From sequence record MN850584.1: 64,000 bases of DNA. The stretch is one strand, 5' to 3'. Shown here piece after piece: positions 3,433 to 32,784 of the stretch (position 1 is the first letter of the stretch; each line of letters begins with the position of its first letter). This DNA is from Escherichia phage arall. A program made the translations under genes and the position numbers. Under the pieces are notes generated by a model, which searched no databases, was not told the DNA's origin, and was given only the letters and a program-made list of their open reading frames with translations.

Positions 3433-4443
3433 ATGGCAGAAAAAAGAGATTATACAAAAGCTCCTGCACCCAATCTAAACAGAGCATACAAACTGTTAAT
3501 AGGTACAGCTACTAATACTAAAGAAAAAAGGACAAAAAATTCCTCTTTCAAATCTACAGTAGACTTAGATACTAAACTAGGGGATGCTAAAAAATCAACC
3601 CCTAATTTGTATGTTATTACGGAGCACCAAATATCTTTCACAATAAGAAAAGATAATAATAAAGATCCTAATCAAGCTGAGATAACTATTTATAACCTAA
3701 GCGATGATACTGTTAATTATATTAACAAAGGTATTCGTAACAACTTGGCTGTTGCTTTGGCGGTAGGTTATGAAGGTCAAGAGTTAATTATGATCTTTAA
3801 GGGAACGGTGCAATGGGTGAGTGATACTTTTAACAATACAGACAGACGTACAGTGTTACATTGTCTGGATGGTGGTATTAACATCTCCGAAGCAAGGACA
3901 AGCAGAAGTTATCCGAAAGGTACAAAAGTAAGTAAAGTTGTTAAAGATTTAGTTAAAGATTTAGGTACTACAGAAGGTAATATTCACGTAGACACAGAGA
4001 AAACTTTATCATCTGCAACAGCTATGTGTGGTAACACATCACATTACTTAGAAAGTATCTGTAAAGGTATTGATCATAATGTGTCGATACAAGATGGATC
4101 TGTTTACGTGACACCAAGATCACAAATGTCTAGTGCAAGATGCGCATATATTAGTGCAGAAACAGGTTTAATTGGTAGTCCAGAACCTTTCCACAATGAT
4201 ATTAAACCAACACAAAAAGTAACTAAATCTTCTAAGAAAGCTAAAAAGCCTACAGATGGTGTTAAGTTCAGATGTGAAATGAACGGTGCTATCTTACCAG
4301 AAAAAACTGTTTGGCTCAAGAGTCATAACTATGATGGTGGTTTTAAGGTAGTATCTGTTGTTCATACAGGAGATAGGGAAGGTAAAGACTGGACAACTGA
4401 AGTAGAGTCTGTATCTGTATCTGCAATTATTAAGAAGGGCTAG
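3433..4443 (+). CDS. baseplate hub-like protein (XkdQ/gpD-like by position)
   Basis: 336 aa; AAGGAG RBS; position between tape measure and spike-like gene; no motif confirmed. Confidence 0.35.
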   Translation: MAEKRDYTKAPAPNLNRAYKLLIGTATNTKEKRTKNSSFKSTVDLDTKLGDAKKSTPNLYVITEHQISFTIRKDNNKDPNQAEITIYNLSDDTVNYINKGIRNNLAVALAVGYEGQELIMIFKGTVQWVSDTFNNTDRRTVLHCLDGGINISEARTSRSYPKGTKVSKVVKDLVKDLGTTEGNIHVDTEKTLSSATAMCGNTSHYLESICKGIDHNVSIQDGSVYVTPRSQMSSARCAYISAETGLIGSPEPFHNDIKPTQKVTKSSKKAKKPTDGVKFRCEMNGAILPEKTVWLKSHNYDGGFKVVSVVHTGDREGKDWTTEVESVSVSAIIKKG

Positions 4444-19989: not shown

Positions 19990-21876
19990 ATGTATCCTAT
20001 TCCTTTATTTATGTCAACAACATCAGCTTCAGTAGTAACAGCTACATCTATAACTACTTCCTCTATTGGTATTGCAATAGTTGGTGGTAAAAAACAACTG
20101 ACATACACAGTTACACCGGAAGATGGTGCATTATTTGATATAGCTTTTTCATCTTCAGATAATACCAAAATGGTTATAGATAATAGTGGTATGATGGAGT
20201 TTGTTGCCGAAGGTAGTTTTGATGCAATAATGACAGCTAAAAATAATTTAGGTGCTGTCTTAACTGATCAATCTGGTGGTTATGCTTCAGAATTAAGTGT
20301 GTACACTGAAAGTCTATCGGCTATGGATGTAGGCACTACTCAACAGTTGGTTGCTACAATCAGTCCAGAAGGTGCTAAAGACCTTCCAGATATGGTAATT
20401 ACATACACCACAACAGATCCAGAAGTAGCTACTGTAAGCCCTACAGGGTTAATAACTGCTCTTAAAGATGGCGGTTGCCGTATAGGTTGTACTGCAACGT
20501 ATCAAGGAACAGTTGTGGCCTCTGATAGGTCTTATTTAGGTGTTAATGCTATTCCTGTTATTTCTAATGTAACAGCCGTGGCAAACAGTTATGGAGACGT
20601 TCGTGTTGCTTGGGATGTAACTGATTCGCTAGACGGTGATACTTATACTGTAGAAGTATTAGATTTAAGTAATAATAGTGTTCAGTGGACTACAACAACC
20701 ACGAATACTCATGCTTACTTTGATATCTCTGACTCTATTCCTCTTTATGGGTTTGCTCCAACATACCTTAAAATTAGCGTTAAGAGCACCAAAGCAGCAG
20801 CCGTTATCTTTAATAACTCAATAGCTACAGATGATTCGTTCATTAAAGAAGTTATTGTCTTTGCTGGACAAGATAACGTAAATGCACACTTTACAGAACT
20901 ATCTGGTGCAAATAAAGCAGCAATGAGTAGCACAACAGCCCGTAATGCATATGCTACGCAACGTGGTTTAGCAAATGCTGAAGTTCTTCCGTTAAATACA
21001 GCTTCTGGATCATCAGCAGCAGATAAATATGCTGACGATAAAGCTGGAACAGGTACACCAGACAACTACTGGTATGATCTGGATAACACAGCAGATGGGC
21101 CATGCTTAACTAATTTTATCACTAAAGTCACACCTTATGCAAGTAAGGTTAAAGCGATTATTTGGGGACAAGGTGAAAATGATGCTGTATCAGCATCTTC
21201 AACTGTTGCAGGTAGGTACAGTAACACTACACGTTACCATGATGCTACGATAGCCATCTTTGATAAGATGCGTACAATAGTTCCTGCTTCTCAAGCAAAA
21301 ATTGTTTGGCAGATCCTAGGACGTTCTTATTTATATGGTGTAGAAGTTAATGGTGTGGATTGGCAGAAGTACAGAAATGTACAAAGAACCATCTCTACAG
21401 CACGTGATGATGTTATCATTGGTTCTTGGGTAGATGGTGCTGAACGTTACAGTGGTTATGTTTATGAAGAAGGTATTGATGGTCGTATCCATTATATTTC
21501 TTCTGTATACCAAACAGCAGCTACAAAACTTGCTAAATCGGCAGCAGACGGTACAGACTTAACATCAGCGTCACCTGTTTGGGTTGATATGTCTGTTCCA
21601 ACAGGAGGAGCCGCTGTAAGACAAGCTAACCAAGATGCAATTATCTCTTGGGAACCAGCAGGATATACTAAACATTACTTCCGAAATGTAAACGTCCTCA
21701 CAGCAGCAACTCTTACAGAACAAACCCTGGATACTAACACTTACACATTTACTTATGCAGATCAGGTTGAACAATATGGATTTGCAGCAGGTACAACAGC
21801 GTTTGATGTTGCACACTATGATGCTGATAATGACGTGTTATCACCTCTTGTCAGATTTACAGTCAATGTTACATAA
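19990..21876 (+). CDS. receptor-binding/tail protein with putative carbohydrate-esterase (SASA/DUF303-like) domain
   Basis: 628 aa; AAGGAG RBS; N-terminal Thr/Ser-rich Ig-like region; VFAGQDNVNAHF and IIWGQGENDA resemble the GQSN / WxQGE blocks of sialate O-acetylesterase-like domains. Confidence 0.45.
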   Translation: MYPIPLFMSTTSASVVTATSITTSSIGIAIVGGKKQLTYTVTPEDGALFDIAFSSSDNTKMVIDNSGMMEFVAEGSFDAIMTAKNNLGAVLTDQSGGYASELSVYTESLSAMDVGTTQQLVATISPEGAKDLPDMVITYTTTDPEVATVSPTGLITALKDGGCRIGCTATYQGTVVASDRSYLGVNAIPVISNVTAVANSYGDVRVAWDVTDSLDGDTYTVEVLDLSNNSVQWTTTTTNTHAYFDISDSIPLYGFAPTYLKISVKSTKAAAVIFNNSIATDDSFIKEVIVFAGQDNVNAHFTELSGANKAAMSSTTARNAYATQRGLANAEVLPLNTASGSSAADKYADDKAGTGTPDNYWYDLDNTADGPCLTNFITKVTPYASKVKAIIWGQGENDAVSASSTVAGRYSNTTRYHDATIAIFDKMRTIVPASQAKIVWQILGRSYLYGVEVNGVDWQKYRNVQRTISTARDDVIIGSWVDGAERYSGYVYEEGIDGRIHYISSVYQTAATKLAKSAADGTDLTSASPVWVDMSVPTGGAAVRQANQDAIISWEPAGYTKHYFRNVNVLTAATLTEQTLDTNTYTFTYADQVEQYGFAAGTTAFDVAHYDADNDVLSPLVRFTVNVT

Positions 21877-21881
21877 ACAAA

Positions 21882-21909
21882 AAGGAGCCAATAGGCTCCT
21901 TTTCTTTTA
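21882..21909. terminator. bidirectional terminator at convergent gene junction
   Basis: AAAGGAGCC-AATA-GGCTCCTTT hairpin with T-tracts on both sides; + gene ends 21876, - gene ends 21912. Confidence 0.6.
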
Positions 21910-21911
21910 TC

Positions 21912-22343
21912 TTAATCAGTGAAAATTACGCTTACATCTTCTTTAGAGAAGAGTTTATGATCTTCACCTTTTGTCTCAAGAGTTTCATACAGGTTAAGAA
22001 GTTCTGAAACATCTTTCTCTACCAGTTTCTTCAATGTTGCAATTTTCTGTTTGCGACTCTTAATACGTTCAGCTACAACCTTACGCTGGTATCCGGCAGT
22101 ACGATAACCTGAGAAAGTTACACCAGTGAGACTTGCAGTTACAGGATCGTAGTGACGTTCAATCTGAAATTTATTAAAAGGTACAGCGTCATCACGAATA
22201 ATCTTACCGCCATTACTTACTTGACGAAGACCAGTAACTTGTTCCAGTCGTGCCATAGAAATCTTTGGAGACAGACCAGAGTCCAGGTTCATACCGTTGT
22301 TAATCAGTGCTTTCAGGGTGATTTTGCTGTTCAGTGTACTCAT
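21912..22343 (-). CDS. hypothetical protein
   Basis: 143 aa; GGAGG 9 nt upstream of ATG; start lies inside the 3' end of the methyltransferase gene (44-nt overlap). Confidence 0.45.
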   Translation of the reverse strand: MSTLNSKITLKALINNGMNLDSGLSPKISMARLEQVTGLRQVSNGGKIIRDDAVPFNKFQIERHYDPVTASLTGVTFSGYRTAGYQRKVVAERIKSRKQKIATLKKLVEKDVSELLNLYETLETKGEDHKLFSKEDVSVIFTD

Positions 22344-23031
22344 TTAGTCGTTCCTCCGCTTGCTTAAAAATATTTACATCGGCTTCACAGCCTAAGTATT
22401 CTCTACCTGTTAAAAGTGCCGCAACTTGTGTTGTTGCACTTCCAGAGAAGAAGTCTAAGACTACATCTCCTTCGTTGGTGTGTATATTAATAAGGTCACA
22501 AAACAAAGTCAAGTGTTTTTGTGTTGGATGAAAACGATCTGCTCCTTGATAGATAGGATACTCAAACACACCCTTATGGTAGGAAGCATTGAAGGTTGGC
22601 TTCGAACCTTTAACACAAACAATAGCCATCTCTTTAGCGTTACTAAGATAGTTAACACCGCTGTTGATGGGTACAGGGTTTGTTTTAATCCATTCAATAG
22701 TACGGAACATACGAAAACCAAGCGGTTCAAGGATTTCACGTAGCTCCTGGATCTTCCAGATATCATACCAAACTATGCAAGTACCACCTTTTCTAAGCAC
22801 CCTATAGGCTTCTTTGAATACTTCTTTAAAGTAAGGAATATCTACAACATCCCAATCACCAAAGTTGTAAGATACACGGAATCTATCCGTATCTTTTCCA
22901 GTCGGCTCTCCAGATTGAAAATTTGTGTCACGAGAAATAGCATATGGTGGGTCAGTAAGAATCAAATCTACACTATTGCTTTCGAGGGTTTGCAGGTAGT
23001 TTAATGCGGTGTTGTTTACAAATTCGCTCAT
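22300..23031 (-). CDS. DNA methyltransferase (beta-class N6-adenine or N4-cytosine)
   Basis: 243 aa; motif IV LILTDPPYAIS (DPPY) precedes motif I VLDFFSGSATT, the beta-class order. Confidence 0.75.
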   Translation of the reverse strand: MSEFVNNTALNYLQTLESNSVDLILTDPPYAISRDTNFQSGEPTGKDTDRFRVSYNFGDWDVVDIPYFKEVFKEAYRVLRKGGTCIVWYDIWKIQELREILEPLGFRMFRTIEWIKTNPVPINSGVNYLSNAKEMAIVCVKGSKPTFNASYHKGVFEYPIYQGADRFHPTQKHLTLFCDLINIHTNEGDVVLDFFSGSATTQVAALLTGREYLGCEADVNIFKQAEERLNEYTEQQNHPESTD

Positions 23032-23040
23032 TATATCTCC

Positions 23041-23069
23041 TTCAAAGAAAAGGAGCCGTTAGGCTCCTT
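23041..23069 (-). terminator. rho-independent terminator
   Basis: AAGGAGCC-N4-GGCTCCTT hairpin, T-rich on - strand; near-identical to the hairpin at 21882. Confidence 0.55.
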
Positions 23070-23091
23070 ATATTCACACAATATTTAACTA

Positions 23092-24039
23092 TTAGAAACA
23101 GTGCAGGAAGTTTCGACCATACTGCAAACCGATAGGAGCAAATGGGATATCATCATCGAAATCTTGAATAACAGGTTCTGGTTCTTTCGGTGCTGGCTCT
23201 TTCTTCTCTACTTTTTTAGTTTCTTTCTTAACTTCTTGTACTGGGGTAGACATTCCACGGATAGCAGCAGCCACTTTATCAGACAAAGCAAGAACTTCAC
23301 GAGCAGCTTCAATAATCTCTTCTGCCGTTACAGTTTTACCTGTATGATCACGACAAGCGTTAAGAATTGCGTGTCCAACTGAAGCACCAAGATCATAGTC
23401 AGTCACATCAACGCCACGATCTTTAGCAATTTCAGCTTTCAGAGTAACAGTTGCAGATTGTACCACACCAGCCAAGTCGAAAGCATCACCTTTCACACCA
23501 GCACGTAGAAGCTCCAGAGCGCCGTTTACAGCGTGTCCTGTTTCGATCCCTACGGTATCACGTTTTTTGTAGTTAGGCTTGCTACCGTCATTATTAGATG
23601 GCTTATTTCCACCTTTTGAAGAGGATTGTGCTTGCTGAACACCTTCTGTTGAAAGAATAGTGATTTTACCTTTAGAGGAGTTGTAGTATGTTTTGCCATT
23701 CCATTCAGAAGGTTTAACATCCATAGTTAGTTCTACACCTTTTTCGATAGTAACCCACTTATCACCATCTTTAACTTGCAGGTTTTCATGTTCTGGGTGC
23801 AGTTTAACTTCACCTAGGCTAACCCAAACACCTTTATCATCAGCACCAGCACCTTTCTCTTTAATAAGCAGAGATGCTTTGTGAGTTGATTCAATTTTCT
23901 TATCTGGCTGACCTGCAACCTTAATATAAGAGACTTTCATTTCATCAAACTTATCTAGTTTGACATATTCAACAATACCTTCAGCCCAGAATGCTTCTTT
24001 TTTAGTACGACGGTCGATTTCAGAATTAATTACTGGCAT
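23092..24039 (-). CDS. ssDNA-binding-like protein carrying an SSB C-terminal-type acidic motif
   Basis: 315 aa; …QDFDDDIPF matches the bacterial SSB tip (DFDDDIPF) but is followed by 15 more residues (APIGLQYGRNFLHCF); OB-fold not verified. Confidence 0.4.
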   Translation of the reverse strand: MPVINSEIDRRTKKEAFWAEGIVEYVKLDKFDEMKVSYIKVAGQPDKKIESTHKASLLIKEKGAGADDKGVWVSLGEVKLHPEHENLQVKDGDKWVTIEKGVELTMDVKPSEWNGKTYYNSSKGKITILSTEGVQQAQSSSKGGNKPSNNDGSKPNYKKRDTVGIETGHAVNGALELLRAGVKGDAFDLAGVVQSATVTLKAEIAKDRGVDVTDYDLGASVGHAILNACRDHTGKTVTAEEIIEAAREVLALSDKVAAAIRGMSTPVQEVKKETKKVEKKEPAPKEPEPVIQDFDDDIPFAPIGLQYGRNFLHCF

Positions 24040-24055
24040 AAATTCTCCTCTATAA

Positions 24056-24454
24056 TTACATTACTTTAACACAAAACTCTCGTAAAAGAGTAGCGTCAGT
24101 TTCTTCCAACAGGTATTTACCAAGACCAATACCAAATCCTATTTCACCACTTTCAAAATGGAGGATTTGTATCTTTTCTCCACCAAGGTTAATTACTTTT
24201 GCTTTTCCAGGATTATCCAAAACATCTCGTATTGTATCCTGTAGTAACATTAGTTCACGTTTTGTGATAGTGGTTTCAGATATCTCTTTGTCTTCTACCC
24301 GCACTGTTAAACGGTTGTATCCACCAAAGAGACATAGTATTTGAATAAAAAAGGTATTATCTTGAGGTTCAACATCTTTTTTAGTTAGTTCAAGACGATT
24401 AGTTTCTCTACTGTAGAACGTCTCGACTAAGATTTTAGAACGATTGTCTGTCAT
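24056..24454 (-). CDS. hypothetical protein
   Basis: 132 aa ORF with GAGGA RBS. Confidence 0.45.
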   Translation of the reverse strand: MTDNRSKILVETFYSRETNRLELTKKDVEPQDNTFFIQILCLFGGYNRLTVRVEDKEISETTITKRELMLLQDTIRDVLDNPGKAKVINLGGEKIQILHFESGEIGFGIGLGKYLLEETDATLLREFCVKVM

Positions 24455-24509
24455 TCAAGTCCTCATAATAACACATAATTGTAAGGTTTGTCAACACTTA
24501 AATCTTAAA

Positions 24510-25112
24510 TTATTCGTTGTTAAATGAATCCAGTGTACGTACTTCTGGTTCTTTGGGAATGAAAACGTCTTTTACAAAGCGGAACATAGGGAAACGTTCT
24601 GCCATTTTACGGACGTGTGCTTCTTTACCTGTGTATCGGTGATTAATAGTGCAAATATTAGTTTTCAATGCAAATTCAAAATCTGGATGATATACATAAT
24701 TTTGACCATCCCAGTAACACAGGCAAATAGCTACGTCAAAGTTCCATACGATTTCACTGCGTACACCCTCTTCCATGATCATAAAGTTAAACTTAAGATC
24801 TTTATAGTATGCTTCAAATACCCATTTCAAATGTGGTAGTTCGGCATAAGTGTGTTCTGTTTGCTTAGTGAGTTGTTTAACATTACGTGCACCAACACCC
24901 AACATCAAAAACTTCTCTACTAGCACGAGTGTATTATGGTTAGGCATACGCAAGTAAATGTCAATGTCTTGTGCAGGTTTCTCTAATCGCCAATCACGTA
25001 CAGCGCCGCCAGCTACAATTGCAAACGGATCTACCAGTTGGCACATACGTAATACTTCTAAAGCGCGTACTTTTTGATCTTCAATATTCATATTTTCTCC
25101 TATCGTGTCCAC
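24510..25112 (-). CDS. pol-beta superfamily nucleotidyltransferase, CCA-adding/poly(A) polymerase head-domain-like
   Basis: 200 aa; IVAGGAVRDWRLEKPAQDIDIY matches the GGxVRD…DxD motif of the CCA/PAP head domain. Confidence 0.5.
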   Translation of the reverse strand: MDTIGENMNIEDQKVRALEVLRMCQLVDPFAIVAGGAVRDWRLEKPAQDIDIYLRMPNHNTLVLVEKFLMLGVGARNVKQLTKQTEHTYAELPHLKWVFEAYYKDLKFNFMIMEEGVRSEIVWNFDVAICLCYWDGQNYVYHPDFEFALKTNICTINHRYTGKEAHVRKMAERFPMFRFVKDVFIPKEPEVRTLDSFNNE

Positions 25113-25696
25113 TCTTTATGTTGTTCTACATGCTCAAGCATTTCATTATACAGTGCTTTAAGATGTGGAACAACTCTTTCATCTTCAGTTTCAAAGAATT
25201 TTGTAAGCTGCTCTGCCTTAGCTTTCAACCAGCAAAGATGCGCTTCAATTTCAGTATTAAAACGTCCCAGCGTTTTCATGCGATCATCTACTTTTATATT
25301 GGCTTTGTATTTATTACGATCTTTTTCGTAACTACAGCCTACCATAGTTCCATGAGATCTTTTACTTACTCTATAAGCTAAGAACTTATTAAGATCTCCT
25401 GTTACTAAAAGACAGGTATCGGGAGAGTAAACCCTCCCTCCTATAATATCTTTATCAAGTTCTAAGTTTTCCCAGTTTTCCCAAGTTTGCAACCAGGAGT
25501 AGAAATTTGAGAACAGTTTCCATTCTTCACAAACCGTCACCCCCTTATAACAAGGATCACGTTCTTGTTGGCAAGGGGAGTAACACCTCCCCAGCATAGC
25601 CATCCATTTCATATAATGCGGCGTTAGTTTCTTACTACCAGGTAGCGTACTCTCGCCTTGCAAATCATTAATACCTTCACCATATACGGTAAGCAT
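25100..25696 (-). CDS. free-standing homing endonuclease-like protein (AP2 DNA-binding domain type)
   Basis: 198 aa; N-terminal MKWMAMLGRCYSP…YKGVTVCEEWKLFSNFYSW and C-terminal GCSYEKDRNKYKANIKVDDRMKTLGRFNTEIEA (AP2-like) typical of phage HNH/AP2 endonucleases; abuts polymerase gene. Confidence 0.5.
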   Translation of the reverse strand: MLTVYGEGINDLQGESTLPGSKKLTPHYMKWMAMLGRCYSPCQQERDPCYKGVTVCEEWKLFSNFYSWLQTWENWENLELDKDIIGGRVYSPDTCLLVTGDLNKFLAYRVSKRSHGTMVGCSYEKDRNKYKANIKVDDRMKTLGRFNTEIEAHLCWLKAKAEQLTKFFETEDERVVPHLKALYNEMLEHVEQHKEWTR

Positions 25697-25723
25697 AAAA
25701 ACTCCTTTAAAATCAAAGAGATG

Positions 25724-31809: not shown

Positions 31810-32784
31810 TTAAAGACTTTCAATAACTTGACGACGCAGTTCATTGGCATCTGCAAGATTATAATTAAGACGAACGTGTTCTGCAAGCATCATACCACGA
31901 TCTTCTGTGTATCTAGGGTTCCTCATTAGCTTGACAACTTCATAATGCCAAGATGCTTTAGAGTCTGCATAGATAACAACCTTTGCATCTACCGGATTGA
32001 AGTACGGCAGCACAGGAGAACAGATAATAGGAAGACCCTTTGCACCTGCTTCCAAAATCTTCAAATTGCTTTTACAGTTGTTGAAGTCATTATCTACTAG
32101 GGGAGCAATTGCAATACTGTGACCGTCATACACAGACATATACTCACCTAAATTTTTAATAGCTGGTTTATACTGTGCATTTGGAATTTTACGTTTTATT
32201 TTAACCCACTCCGCAGTAGTTAGATACTGACTATTATTTCCAACAGGTGCAGAAGGATACACTTCATACCCTGCAATTGTCAATAGTGTATCATCAAATG
32301 TATTAGCTACAAGAGATAAATCAGGCTCATGGCTTGCTCCTCCAGCCCAGATAATAGGTGTGTCAGAACTACGGTCTTTTGTCAAAGTAAATTGACCTTC
32401 GTCGTAAGGTAGTGCGTTTCTAATAACGACAACATTACGATTTAAATGACGAATTTTGTAAGCTAGGTATTCTGTTGTTACAGTAACCACATCTGCTAAC
32501 TTAATCATCTCTACAATAGTCTTTGAGTGATTAGTAAATACGCCAGCCATATAATGTTCAGGATTAAGCGAATAAAAATCATCTAAATCAACAATAATCT
32601 TAACACCTTGTGCCTTCAGGCGTTTAACTTCGTCTGATCCACGAGAATACACTCTATTAAAAACTAAAACGTCTTTCTTAGGTTTAAACGTATTTCCAGC
32701 AAATGGCATTACAATACGATGGTAATCACAACCACTGCCTAACTTATTATCACACTTAAGTACAGGAGTATTAGGATTTACCAT
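31810..32784 (-). CDS. glycosyltransferase-like protein (GT-B-like), paralog B
   Basis: 324 aa from internal ATG (MVNPNTPVLK) with GAGGAGG RBS; IAIAPLVDNDFNNCKSNLKILEAGAKGLPIICSP aligns with paralog A. Confidence 0.4.
   Translation of the reverse strand: MVNPNTPVLKCDNKLGSGCDYHRIVMPFAGNTFKPKKDVLVFNRVYSRGSDEVKRLKAQGVKIIVDLDDFYSLNPEHYMAGVFTNHSKTIVEMIKLADVVTVTTEYLAYKIRHLNRNVVVIRNALPYDEGQFTLTKDRSSDTPIIWAGGASHEPDLSLVANTFDDTLLTIAGYEVYPSAPVGNNSQYLTTAEWVKIKRKIPNAQYKPAIKNLGEYMSVYDGHSIAIAPLVDNDFNNCKSNLKILEAGAKGLPIICSPVLPYFNPVDAKVVIYADSKASWHYEVVKLMRNPRYTEDRGMMLAEHVRLNYNLADANELRRQVIESL

Follow-up and report, generated by a model that had tools for sequence, protein, structure and literature searches.

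Do two hairpins of nearly the same sequence, standing on either side of two genes, mark a cassette that was acquired as a unit, or are they simply two similar terminators? This question is raised by positions 21882-23069 of a 64,000-nucleotide (nt) stretch of Escherichia phage arall (MN850584.1), the whole of which we call the window. Here a DNA methyltransferase gene and a second, 143-residue open reading frame (ORF) lie between a left hairpin, H1, and a right hairpin, H2. The original prediction offered both readings, and added that the unit might be an orphan anti-restriction methyltransferase moron. From comparison with related phages we consider it probable that H1 and H2 are ordinary Rho-independent terminators rather than mobility sites, that their matching stems reflect a small terminator "vocabulary", with H2 perhaps descended from the resident terminator, without being something that the cassette requires, and that the methyltransferase and its partner form a single conserved, transferable accessory module; this weight applies to the explanation as a whole. 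The hairpins are routine, and the useful outcome is the gene pair, with an unannotated partner family found beside phage DNA methyltransferases.

Escherichia phage phi92 (NC_023693 92106-95606) matches the region at 21000-24500 with 98.5% identity, and 54 other Justusliebigvirus records are similarly close to that region. The gene pair corresponds to gp155 and gp154 of phi92, where the first carries a methyltransferase annotation and the second is listed as hypothetical; we use these names below. Exactly two ORFs lie between H1 and H2, both on the minus strand: gp155 (22300-23031), which encodes a beta-class DNA methyltransferase of 243 residues, and gp154 (21912-22343), whose 5' end overlaps the 3' end of gp155 by 44 nt at 22300-22343. 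These coordinates confirm the two-gene arrangement and the overlap that had been noted for the unit. On the same strand, a ribosome-binding site, AGGAG, lies ahead of gp155 at 23037-23041, and a Shine-Dalgarno sequence, GGAGG, can be read ahead of gp154 at 22353-22357.

The methyltransferase and its partner gene

Judged by its profile match, gp155 is a regular member of PF01555 (N6_N4_Mtase), which it covers from end to end (profile positions 1-221 of 221; E-value 1.9e-30; 106.9 bits vs a cut-off of 26.7). This match and a DPPY motif at residues 27-30 bear out the original description of a DPPY-type DNA methyltransferase. The protein also belongs to phrog_67 and matches the PADLOC profiles MTase_II (E 1.5e-46) and oMTase (2.2e-24). 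A DFFSGSATT motif near residue 195 has Ala in place of the last Gly of the FxGxG-type motif, and the motif order, with DPPY first and the S-adenosylmethionine-binding DFFSGSATT last, is that of the beta permutation. The best solved relatives are M1.HpyAVI/"DpnA" (5HEK, E 1e-28) and CcrM (E 1e-16), with N4-cytosine enzymes reaching only about 1e-8, which suggests that gp155 is an N6-adenine enzyme. The likeness to M1.HpyAVI/DpnA and CcrM covers the beta motif order, a length of about 240 residues and PF01555 membership. The identity of these enzymes to gp155 is only moderate, however, and the tight subfamily to which gp155 and the other partner-linked PF01555 enzymes belong (53-86% identity) is always followed by a gp154-family gene. 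We know of no description of such a pairing for DpnA, M1.HpyAVI or CcrM.

The linkage between the two genes extends well beyond phi92-like phages. We examined 13 contexts of gp154-family genes, the window included, and found a DNA methyltransferase gene directly upstream of the partner in 12 of them. In ten the upstream enzyme is a PF01555 member (the window and loci L003, L004, L005, L011, L012, L013, L016, L019 and L020). In the other two (L015 and L018) it is another small methyltransferase with an NPPF motif, which matches phrog_799, a "DNA methyltransferase" PHROG (E 1e-29 to 1e-32), and has no PF01555 match. The surroundings of these pairs are unrelated to one another, with neighbours such as ThyX/NT5C, PhoH/ClpP, T7-like gp5.9/DUF3310, dihydrofolate reductase (DHFR)/Dam, and ribonucleotide reductase. 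The next-nearest methyltransferases, in LR745206 (47% identity) and in Staphylococcus and Vibrio phages (about 32%), have no such partner; a 135-residue ORF after the LR745206 methyltransferase was considered as one and proved unrelated. Pairwise divergences of methyltransferase and partner are correlated (r = 0.89), a value that is descriptive only, the pairs being non-independent. The arrangement of the two frames is also conserved. In 11 of 12 loci (among them L003-L005, L011, L012, L016, L018-L020 and the window) the partner is read in the +1 frame with respect to the methyltransferase; ten of these have an overlap of 8-44 nt and one has a 1-nt gap, and the overlap lengths of 8, 17, 26, 29, 32, 41 and 44 nt are all 2 modulo 3, the phrog_799-type loci included. 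Since the partner is tied to two methyltransferase families, these results suggest that its role is linked to methylation or to the methyl mark, and not to the structure of one enzyme.

Other methyltransferase genes are found in these genomes. The phi92 annotation holds further DNA methyltransferases outside the window, gp043 (NC_023693 14463-15452) and gp056 (20660-21169). A hidden Markov model (HMM) search found no gp154-family neighbour for either of them, and no homologue elsewhere in the phi92-type genome. Immediately ahead of its DNA polymerase, phage tuntematon, of the sister genus Phapecoctavirus, encodes a different N6-adenine methyltransferase.

The partner itself is a member of a small unannotated family that, by our profile searches, matches no described one. 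No match to gp154 was found in Pfam, NCBIfam or PADLOC, its sole PHROG match is phrog_20244, of unknown function, and sequence searches of the PDB and Pfam gave coiled-coil noise only. The family comprises four clusters in a word-indexed search of 5.8 billion proteins, and 32 members of about 125-143 residues when 1.84 billion representatives were searched in full with an HMM. Searches with close-relative patterns gave no homologues in bacterial or archaeal genomes, and a literature search found no mention of the protein. Six residues are invariant in the family (G23, S25, R50, D52, F77 and G79) and four are nearly so (E34, N44, G45 and F59). The protein has an isoelectric point (pI) of 9.5, with 11 Lys/Arg residues between positions 81 and 110, followed by an acidic tail. 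An AlphaFold2 model from a 29-sequence alignment reached a predicted local distance difference test (pLDDT) value of 95 and a predicted template modelling score of 0.73; an earlier model from a 4-sequence alignment (pLDDT 53) was unusable. The model has an alpha/beta N-terminal domain, made of two N-terminal helices, a conserved non-helical RQxSNGxxIIRxD segment and a beta-hairpin at 59-80, then a basic helix of 43 residues (83-125) and a short C-terminal helix. With this predicted shape, gp154 is possibly a DNA-binding dimer.

A small, probably dimeric and probably DNA-binding protein linked to a methyltransferase recalls the controller (C) proteins and the N-terminal helix-turn-helix (HTH) domains of restriction-modification (R-M) methyltransferases, such as C.PvuII and M.SsoII. 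However, gp154 has neither an XRE-type HTH nor any Pfam match, it lies downstream of a methyltransferase gene and not upstream of a restriction gene, and no C-box or promoter is visible at it. No restriction gene was found in any of the 13 contexts. On these three points, the HTH, the position and the missing restriction gene, gp154 was rejected as an R-M controller protein.

Could the unit simply be an anti-restriction module, in which the methyltransferase shields phage DNA from a host type II or type III enzyme of matching specificity and the partner is incidental or counters methylation-dependent type IV restriction provoked by the new mark? The methyltransferase stands alone and its PADLOC matches are type II-like, no nuclease family was detected beside it, and a partner that accompanies two methyltransferase families would fit a role at the methyl mark. 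Yet published phenotyping found phi92-like phages to be "exceptionally susceptible" to the R-M systems tested, with no effective protection (PMC8594841), which makes a broad anti-restriction function unlikely. The basic partner is also unlike the acidic DNA mimics Ocr and ArdA. We therefore regard this alternative as rather doubtful, though it is the strongest of the rival readings.

Two probable terminators and the history of the junction

Both hairpins exist as first described, each within 2 nt of the coordinates originally given. The full stem of H1 is AAAAGGAGCC-AATA-GGCTCCTTTT at 21880-21903, with the core AAAGGAGCC-AATA-GGCTCCTT at 21881-21901. H2 reads on the plus strand as AAGGAGCC-GTTA-GGCTCCTT at 23050-23069, or as AAAGGAGCC-GTTA-GGCTCCTT at 23049-23069, and on the minus strand as AAGGAGCC-TAAC-GGCTCCTT followed by TTTTCTTT; with this tail the element spans 23042-23069. 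The H1 stem has 10-11 bp, and a T-tract follows it on either strand (plus, TTTTCTTTT; minus, TTTTTGTTT); the H2 stem has 8 bp and a T-tract, TTTTCTTT, on the coding strand only. In a 15-kb scan of both strands, H1 on either strand and H2 on the minus strand were the three best terminator-like sites. Their RNAs are predicted to fold with free energies of -20.3 (H1, minus), -16.3 (H1, plus) and -13.6 kcal/mol (H2, minus), with z-scores from -3.9 (H2) to -7.1 and none of 200 shuffled sequences as stable. Both are annotated as terminators in phage Paula. Each has the GC-rich stem-loop and the U-rich tract of an intrinsic terminator and each is placed at the 3' end of a transcription unit, H1 lying 4 nt past the stop of a tail gene and 8 nt past that of gp154, and H2 lying 22 nt past the stop of gp156, the gene upstream of the pair, and ending 17 nt ahead of the gp155 ATG. 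The reading as two similar terminators thus agrees with the scan, the folding and the Paula annotation alike. A search of 21600-23300 against Rfam gave nothing meaningful (best E 0.11-0.9, all far below the gathering thresholds), by which a known RNA element was ruled out for this interval.

The tail gene (19990-21876, plus strand) is convergent with the methyltransferase operon, and its transcript would end at H1. Because this gene and the minus-strand gp154 converge there, H1 is, as far as its position and folding tell, a bidirectional terminator where the leftward replication operon (pol ... gp157-gp156) meets the rightward tail-fibre operon. Both hairpins resemble known bidirectional terminators at convergent operon junctions in their perfect GC-rich stems of 8-11 bp, their 4-nt loops and their position at gene ends. 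H1 further shares with these the A-tract upstream and the T-tract downstream and would be active on both strands, whereas H2 would act on one strand only. The single oddity in this comparison is that two neighbouring terminators have the same 6-bp core.

The position of H2 between gp156 and gp155 bears on how the pair is expressed. The strongest match in a sigma-70 consensus scan of the region, TTGACA-18-TATTAT with a TG (11/12), lies at 24494-24465 on the minus strand, upstream of gp157. The same scan found no sigma-70-like promoter between gp156 and the methyltransferase gene, nor beside H1 or H2 on either strand; phage-specific promoters would escape it. Because the promoter match lies only upstream of gp157 and none precedes the methyltransferase gene, we infer a single operon, gp157-gp156-[H2]-methyltransferase-gp154-[H1], that would be transcribed from the promoter upstream of gp157. 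The transcript of gp156 would meet H2, which may serve as an attenuator, and the module is then most likely expressed by read-through, at a reduced level for both the methyltransferase and gp154. The partner would be translated from its overlapping start behind the Shine-Dalgarno sequence, which points to translational coupling with the methyltransferase, and the resident terminator H1 would end the transcript of a module that was probably inserted once upstream of it.

Comparison of related phages for the presence of the unit, which the original prediction had proposed, gave a divided result. The close relatives, taken as the records whose gp156 is 95% or more identical, number 55, all of Justusliebigvirus, and every one of them carries gp154 and gp155. 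Both genes are absent at the same gp156/tail-gene junction from the sister genus Phapecoctavirus and from the outgroup Mydovirus. In tuntematon, the gp156 homologue is followed by 56 nt and then by the convergent tail gene, with one hairpin between them, AAAGGAGCC-ATTT-GGCTCCTTTTCTT, that has the same GGAGCC stem and the same A-rich left flank as H1. Another Phapecoctavirus, nieznany, has at this junction a gene for an HNH-type endonuclease, followed by a GGGAACC hairpin. In the outgroup, Proteus phage Mydo (Vequintavirinae), the arrangement is again the empty one, with an annotated bidirectional terminator, GGCTCCC/GGGAGCC. GGGAGCC or GGGAACC variants also occupy the H1 position in L003, L004, L005 and nieznany. 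By position and stem, H1 is the ancestral terminator, positionally orthologous to the one terminator found where Phapecoctavirus and Mydovirus have the empty site.

Three diverged lineages carry the pair at the same junction: L003, which is a 151-kb metagenomic phage, L004, and L005/L007. The DNA polymerases of the window, L003 and L005 are 83-88% identical among themselves and 75-80% identical to that of tuntematon, and the nucleotidyltransferases give the same pattern. Across the lineages the module shows identities of 78-86% for the methyltransferase and 55-65% for gp154, which lie in the range of the neighbouring genes (54-77%), supporting a single insertion and subsequent vertical descent. 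The simplest history would be one gain of the module in the ancestor of the phi92-side clade (Justusliebigvirus with L003, L004 and L005), followed by vertical inheritance. We also considered loss of the pair in Phapecoctavirus through recombination between H2 and H1. Since the outgroup is empty as well, and since the left flank of the tuntematon hairpin matches H1 and not H2, gain is favoured over loss and this candidate was rejected. H2 could have arrived with the module, could be a duplicate of H1, or could be a new terminator.

What became of the cassette, then, is that the pattern of gain and absence and the unrelated phage contexts support its acquisition as a unit, but the hairpins lend it no support. 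In L003, L004 and L005/L007 there are terminators on both sides of the pair, and the stems of the two sides do not match: the upstream stems are GGGGC-type, except for GGAGCC in L004, and the downstream stems are GGGAGCC(TC) or GGGAACC(TC). The matched pair of hairpins is confined to the phi92 group. With non-matching flanks in these lineages and with H1 pre-existing at the empty site, the step from hairpin identity to cassette fails. The hairpin is also generic, AAGGAGCC-N4-GGCTCCTTTT being found in more than 120 unrelated viral contigs of IMG/VR, and other terminator stems recur as well, with identical loops. The window has 7 perfect-stem terminators and the whole relative genome about 24, among which a AAAGGGGC-TTTC-GCCCCTTT terminator occurs four times with an identical loop and the AAACCCGC-type and GGGCGC-type terminators three times each. 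In the relative OZ035773 these recurring terminators lie at 32366, 43521, 116120 and 129208, at 78750, 104084 and 108467, and at 86502, 90231 and 90713, two GGGCGC-type copies being only about 480 bp apart; their equivalents in the window include 17952 and 28372. Terminators that look alike should accordingly not be taken for the ends of a cassette unless comparison with relatives supports it.

The "moron" part of the original proposal stood in part. Like a moron, the pair is an accessory unit that is dispensable to the core genome plan, lies between two conserved genes with a terminator, H1, after it, and is present or absent among syntenic relatives. It differs in having no detected promoter of its own, the scan giving no sigma-70-like match (phage-specific promoters lie outside that scan), in being located in the replication operon of a lytic myovirus, and in being old and vertically inherited, not sporadic.

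Several observations weigh against the explanation we favour. One hairpin stands at the empty tuntematon site and two at the filled site, and all of them are GGAGCC-stemmed. The exact GGAGCC-N4-GGCTCC hairpin occurs at two sites only in the window, H1 and H2, where sites with at most two mismatches number 3 against 0.44 expected, and the exact GGAGCC stem is limited to two sites in a complete 148.9-kb relative as well. The original prediction had named recurrence at many unrelated terminators, together with universal presence of the cassette in relatives, as what would speak against it, and repetition of the hairpin throughout this genome was rejected on these two counts. H2 together with the ribosome-binding site is identical between the window and L004 over 33 of 33 nt, yet their methyltransferases are only 78% identical as proteins, which hints at a sequence-level constraint or a recent exchange. 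Pseudoalteromonas phage J2-1 (L008, MF988720) has the only family member without an adjacent methyltransferase gene (3980-4393), and the proposed read-through is drawn solely from consensus scans, by which phage-specific promoters would be missed. The J2-1 member follows an HNH endonuclease gene and precedes thymidylate synthase, DHFR and ribonucleotide reductase genes.

The hairpin observations among these would favour a reading in which cassette exchange left the matching hairpins behind or was brought about by them, the resident terminator having been duplicated at insertion or the stem-loops having recombined. It has been documented that promoter-early stem-loop (PeSL) elements mediate the shuffling of small cassettes in T4-type phages (PMC2839356, Arbiol et al. 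2010; PMC4122927, Comeau et al. 2014), and here, too, similar stem-loop terminators bracket a small non-essential unit that is present or absent among relatives. The longest likeness between H1 and H2, which includes the T-tract, is 26 nt with 88% identity (21882-21907 vs 23044-23069). This likeness is an inverted repeat, because the tail TTTTCTTT points into the cassette from both hairpins, and recombination between inverted repeats would invert the segment, not excise it. Moreover, the H1-like flank in tuntematon is not what a simple deletion between H2 and H1 would leave, and the flanks do not match in three other cassette-bearing lineages. Unlike PeSL elements, H1 and H2 are joined to no sigma-70 promoter, occur as two copies in 148.9 kb and not as a dispersed family with many copies at indel boundaries, and enclose a unit that all 55 close relatives carry. 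We thus rejected a PeSL-type mobile cassette, and consider exchange through the hairpins in general to be unlikely.

Neighbouring genes and an endonuclease remnant

A synteny break at H2 was considered as a sign of module mobility and rejected. L005 and L007 have identical modules and different upstream genes, with identity starting at H2; the difference is only the presence or absence of a 142-residue HNH-type homing endonuclease between gp156 and H2. The endonuclease at this site is homologous to the nieznany gene (56% identity), intact homologues being those of nieznany (L010 5905-6399) and L007 (418-846). In the window, the minus strand at 23120-23085 encodes MVETSCTVSNS*, which aligns with MVETSCIASKVCFKCG... 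in nieznany, and about 25 nt directly before H2 resemble the 3' end of the L004 endonuclease gene. By translation and alignment, what is left of an HNH-type homing endonuclease gene lies at 23085-23120, between gp156 and H2, where it overlaps a 15-residue extension at the 3' end of gp156.

The remnant explains a peculiarity of gp156 (23092-24039, minus strand, 315 residues). Its C-terminal tip, DFDDDIPF, resembles the acidic motif of bacterial single-stranded DNA-binding protein (SSB), and DDDIPF is the true C-terminus of gp156 in tuntematon, L003 and L005. In the window the protein continues for 15 residues (APIGLQYGRNFLHCF) beyond this SSB-like tip because of the endonuclease scar. The protein belongs to phrog_4477, a PHROG of unknown function, with a weak match to an SSB phrog; no Pfam or NCBIfam match was found, and several relatives annotate it as SSB. 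Possibly gp156 is a divergent SSB, with its tip hidden behind the extension derived from the endonuclease.

Left of H1, the tail gene at 19990-21876 (equivalent to the phi92 gp153 region) encodes a 628-residue tail protein of phrog_32204 with Big_2 domains and a weak match to a SASA-type sialate O-acetylesterase. Its length differs among close relatives, being about 930 bp greater in the alia/Paula group, and at this locus the phi92 annotation has only a 295-residue ORF, marked "no RBS identified" (RBS, ribosome-binding site). Further upstream of the pair, a stop-to-stop open frame of 207 residues lies at 25103-25723 on the minus strand, with the nucleotidyltransferase gene on one side and the DNA polymerase gene on the other. 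No Pfam match was found for it, and the phi92 annotation has one long polymerase coding sequence across this area instead. The frame may belong to a mobile endonuclease that has gone unrecognised, or may reflect a difference in annotation.

Possible roles of the partner

We propose that gp154 and the methyltransferase act jointly, gp154 being an accessory or regulatory factor that binds DNA and is probably a dimer. Candidate roles for it are those of a targeting or activating factor, of an expression regulator, and of a reader or shield of methylated DNA. A miniature R-M or toxin-like system, with the 143-residue protein as a small nuclease that is checked by the co-translated methyltransferase and would degrade unmethylated DNA of the host or of competitors, is very improbable. 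In its favour, type II systems often have overlapping ORFs in the order M then R, conserved acidic and basic residues occur in the partner (E34, R50 and D52), and the module is mobile between phages. Against it, the partner shows no PD-(D/E)xK, HNH or GIY-YIG pattern and no invariant His or Lys, matches no nuclease family or fold, has a globular domain of about 80 residues, below the size of known restriction enzymes, and occurs in J2-1 with no methyltransferase beside it, which would be lethal were it a restriction enzyme. On these patterns a nuclease role for gp154 is unlikely.

More specifically, and only as a tentative proposal, the gp154 family, whose proteins have about 135 residues and a basic coiled-coil helix besides the RQxSNGxxIIRxD motif, may be a dedicated partner of phage DNA adenine methyltransferases, enlisted by two or more methyltransferase families that are unrelated to each other. 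It would then serve as a subunit that targets the enzyme to DNA or activates it, or else it would read or shield the methyl mark, with methylation-dependent restriction as one conceivable threat. If this is true, "orphan" phage methyltransferases of such a type would be two-component systems. Phage "orphan" methyltransferases have usually been treated as single-gene anti-restriction devices, and here one is accompanied by a conserved second component. If the partner modulates, targets or complements methylation, both the annotation of phage methyltransferases and the prediction of their specificity would change, and the sensitivity to restriction of therapeutic phages with a broad host range, phi92 among them, would be understood differently.

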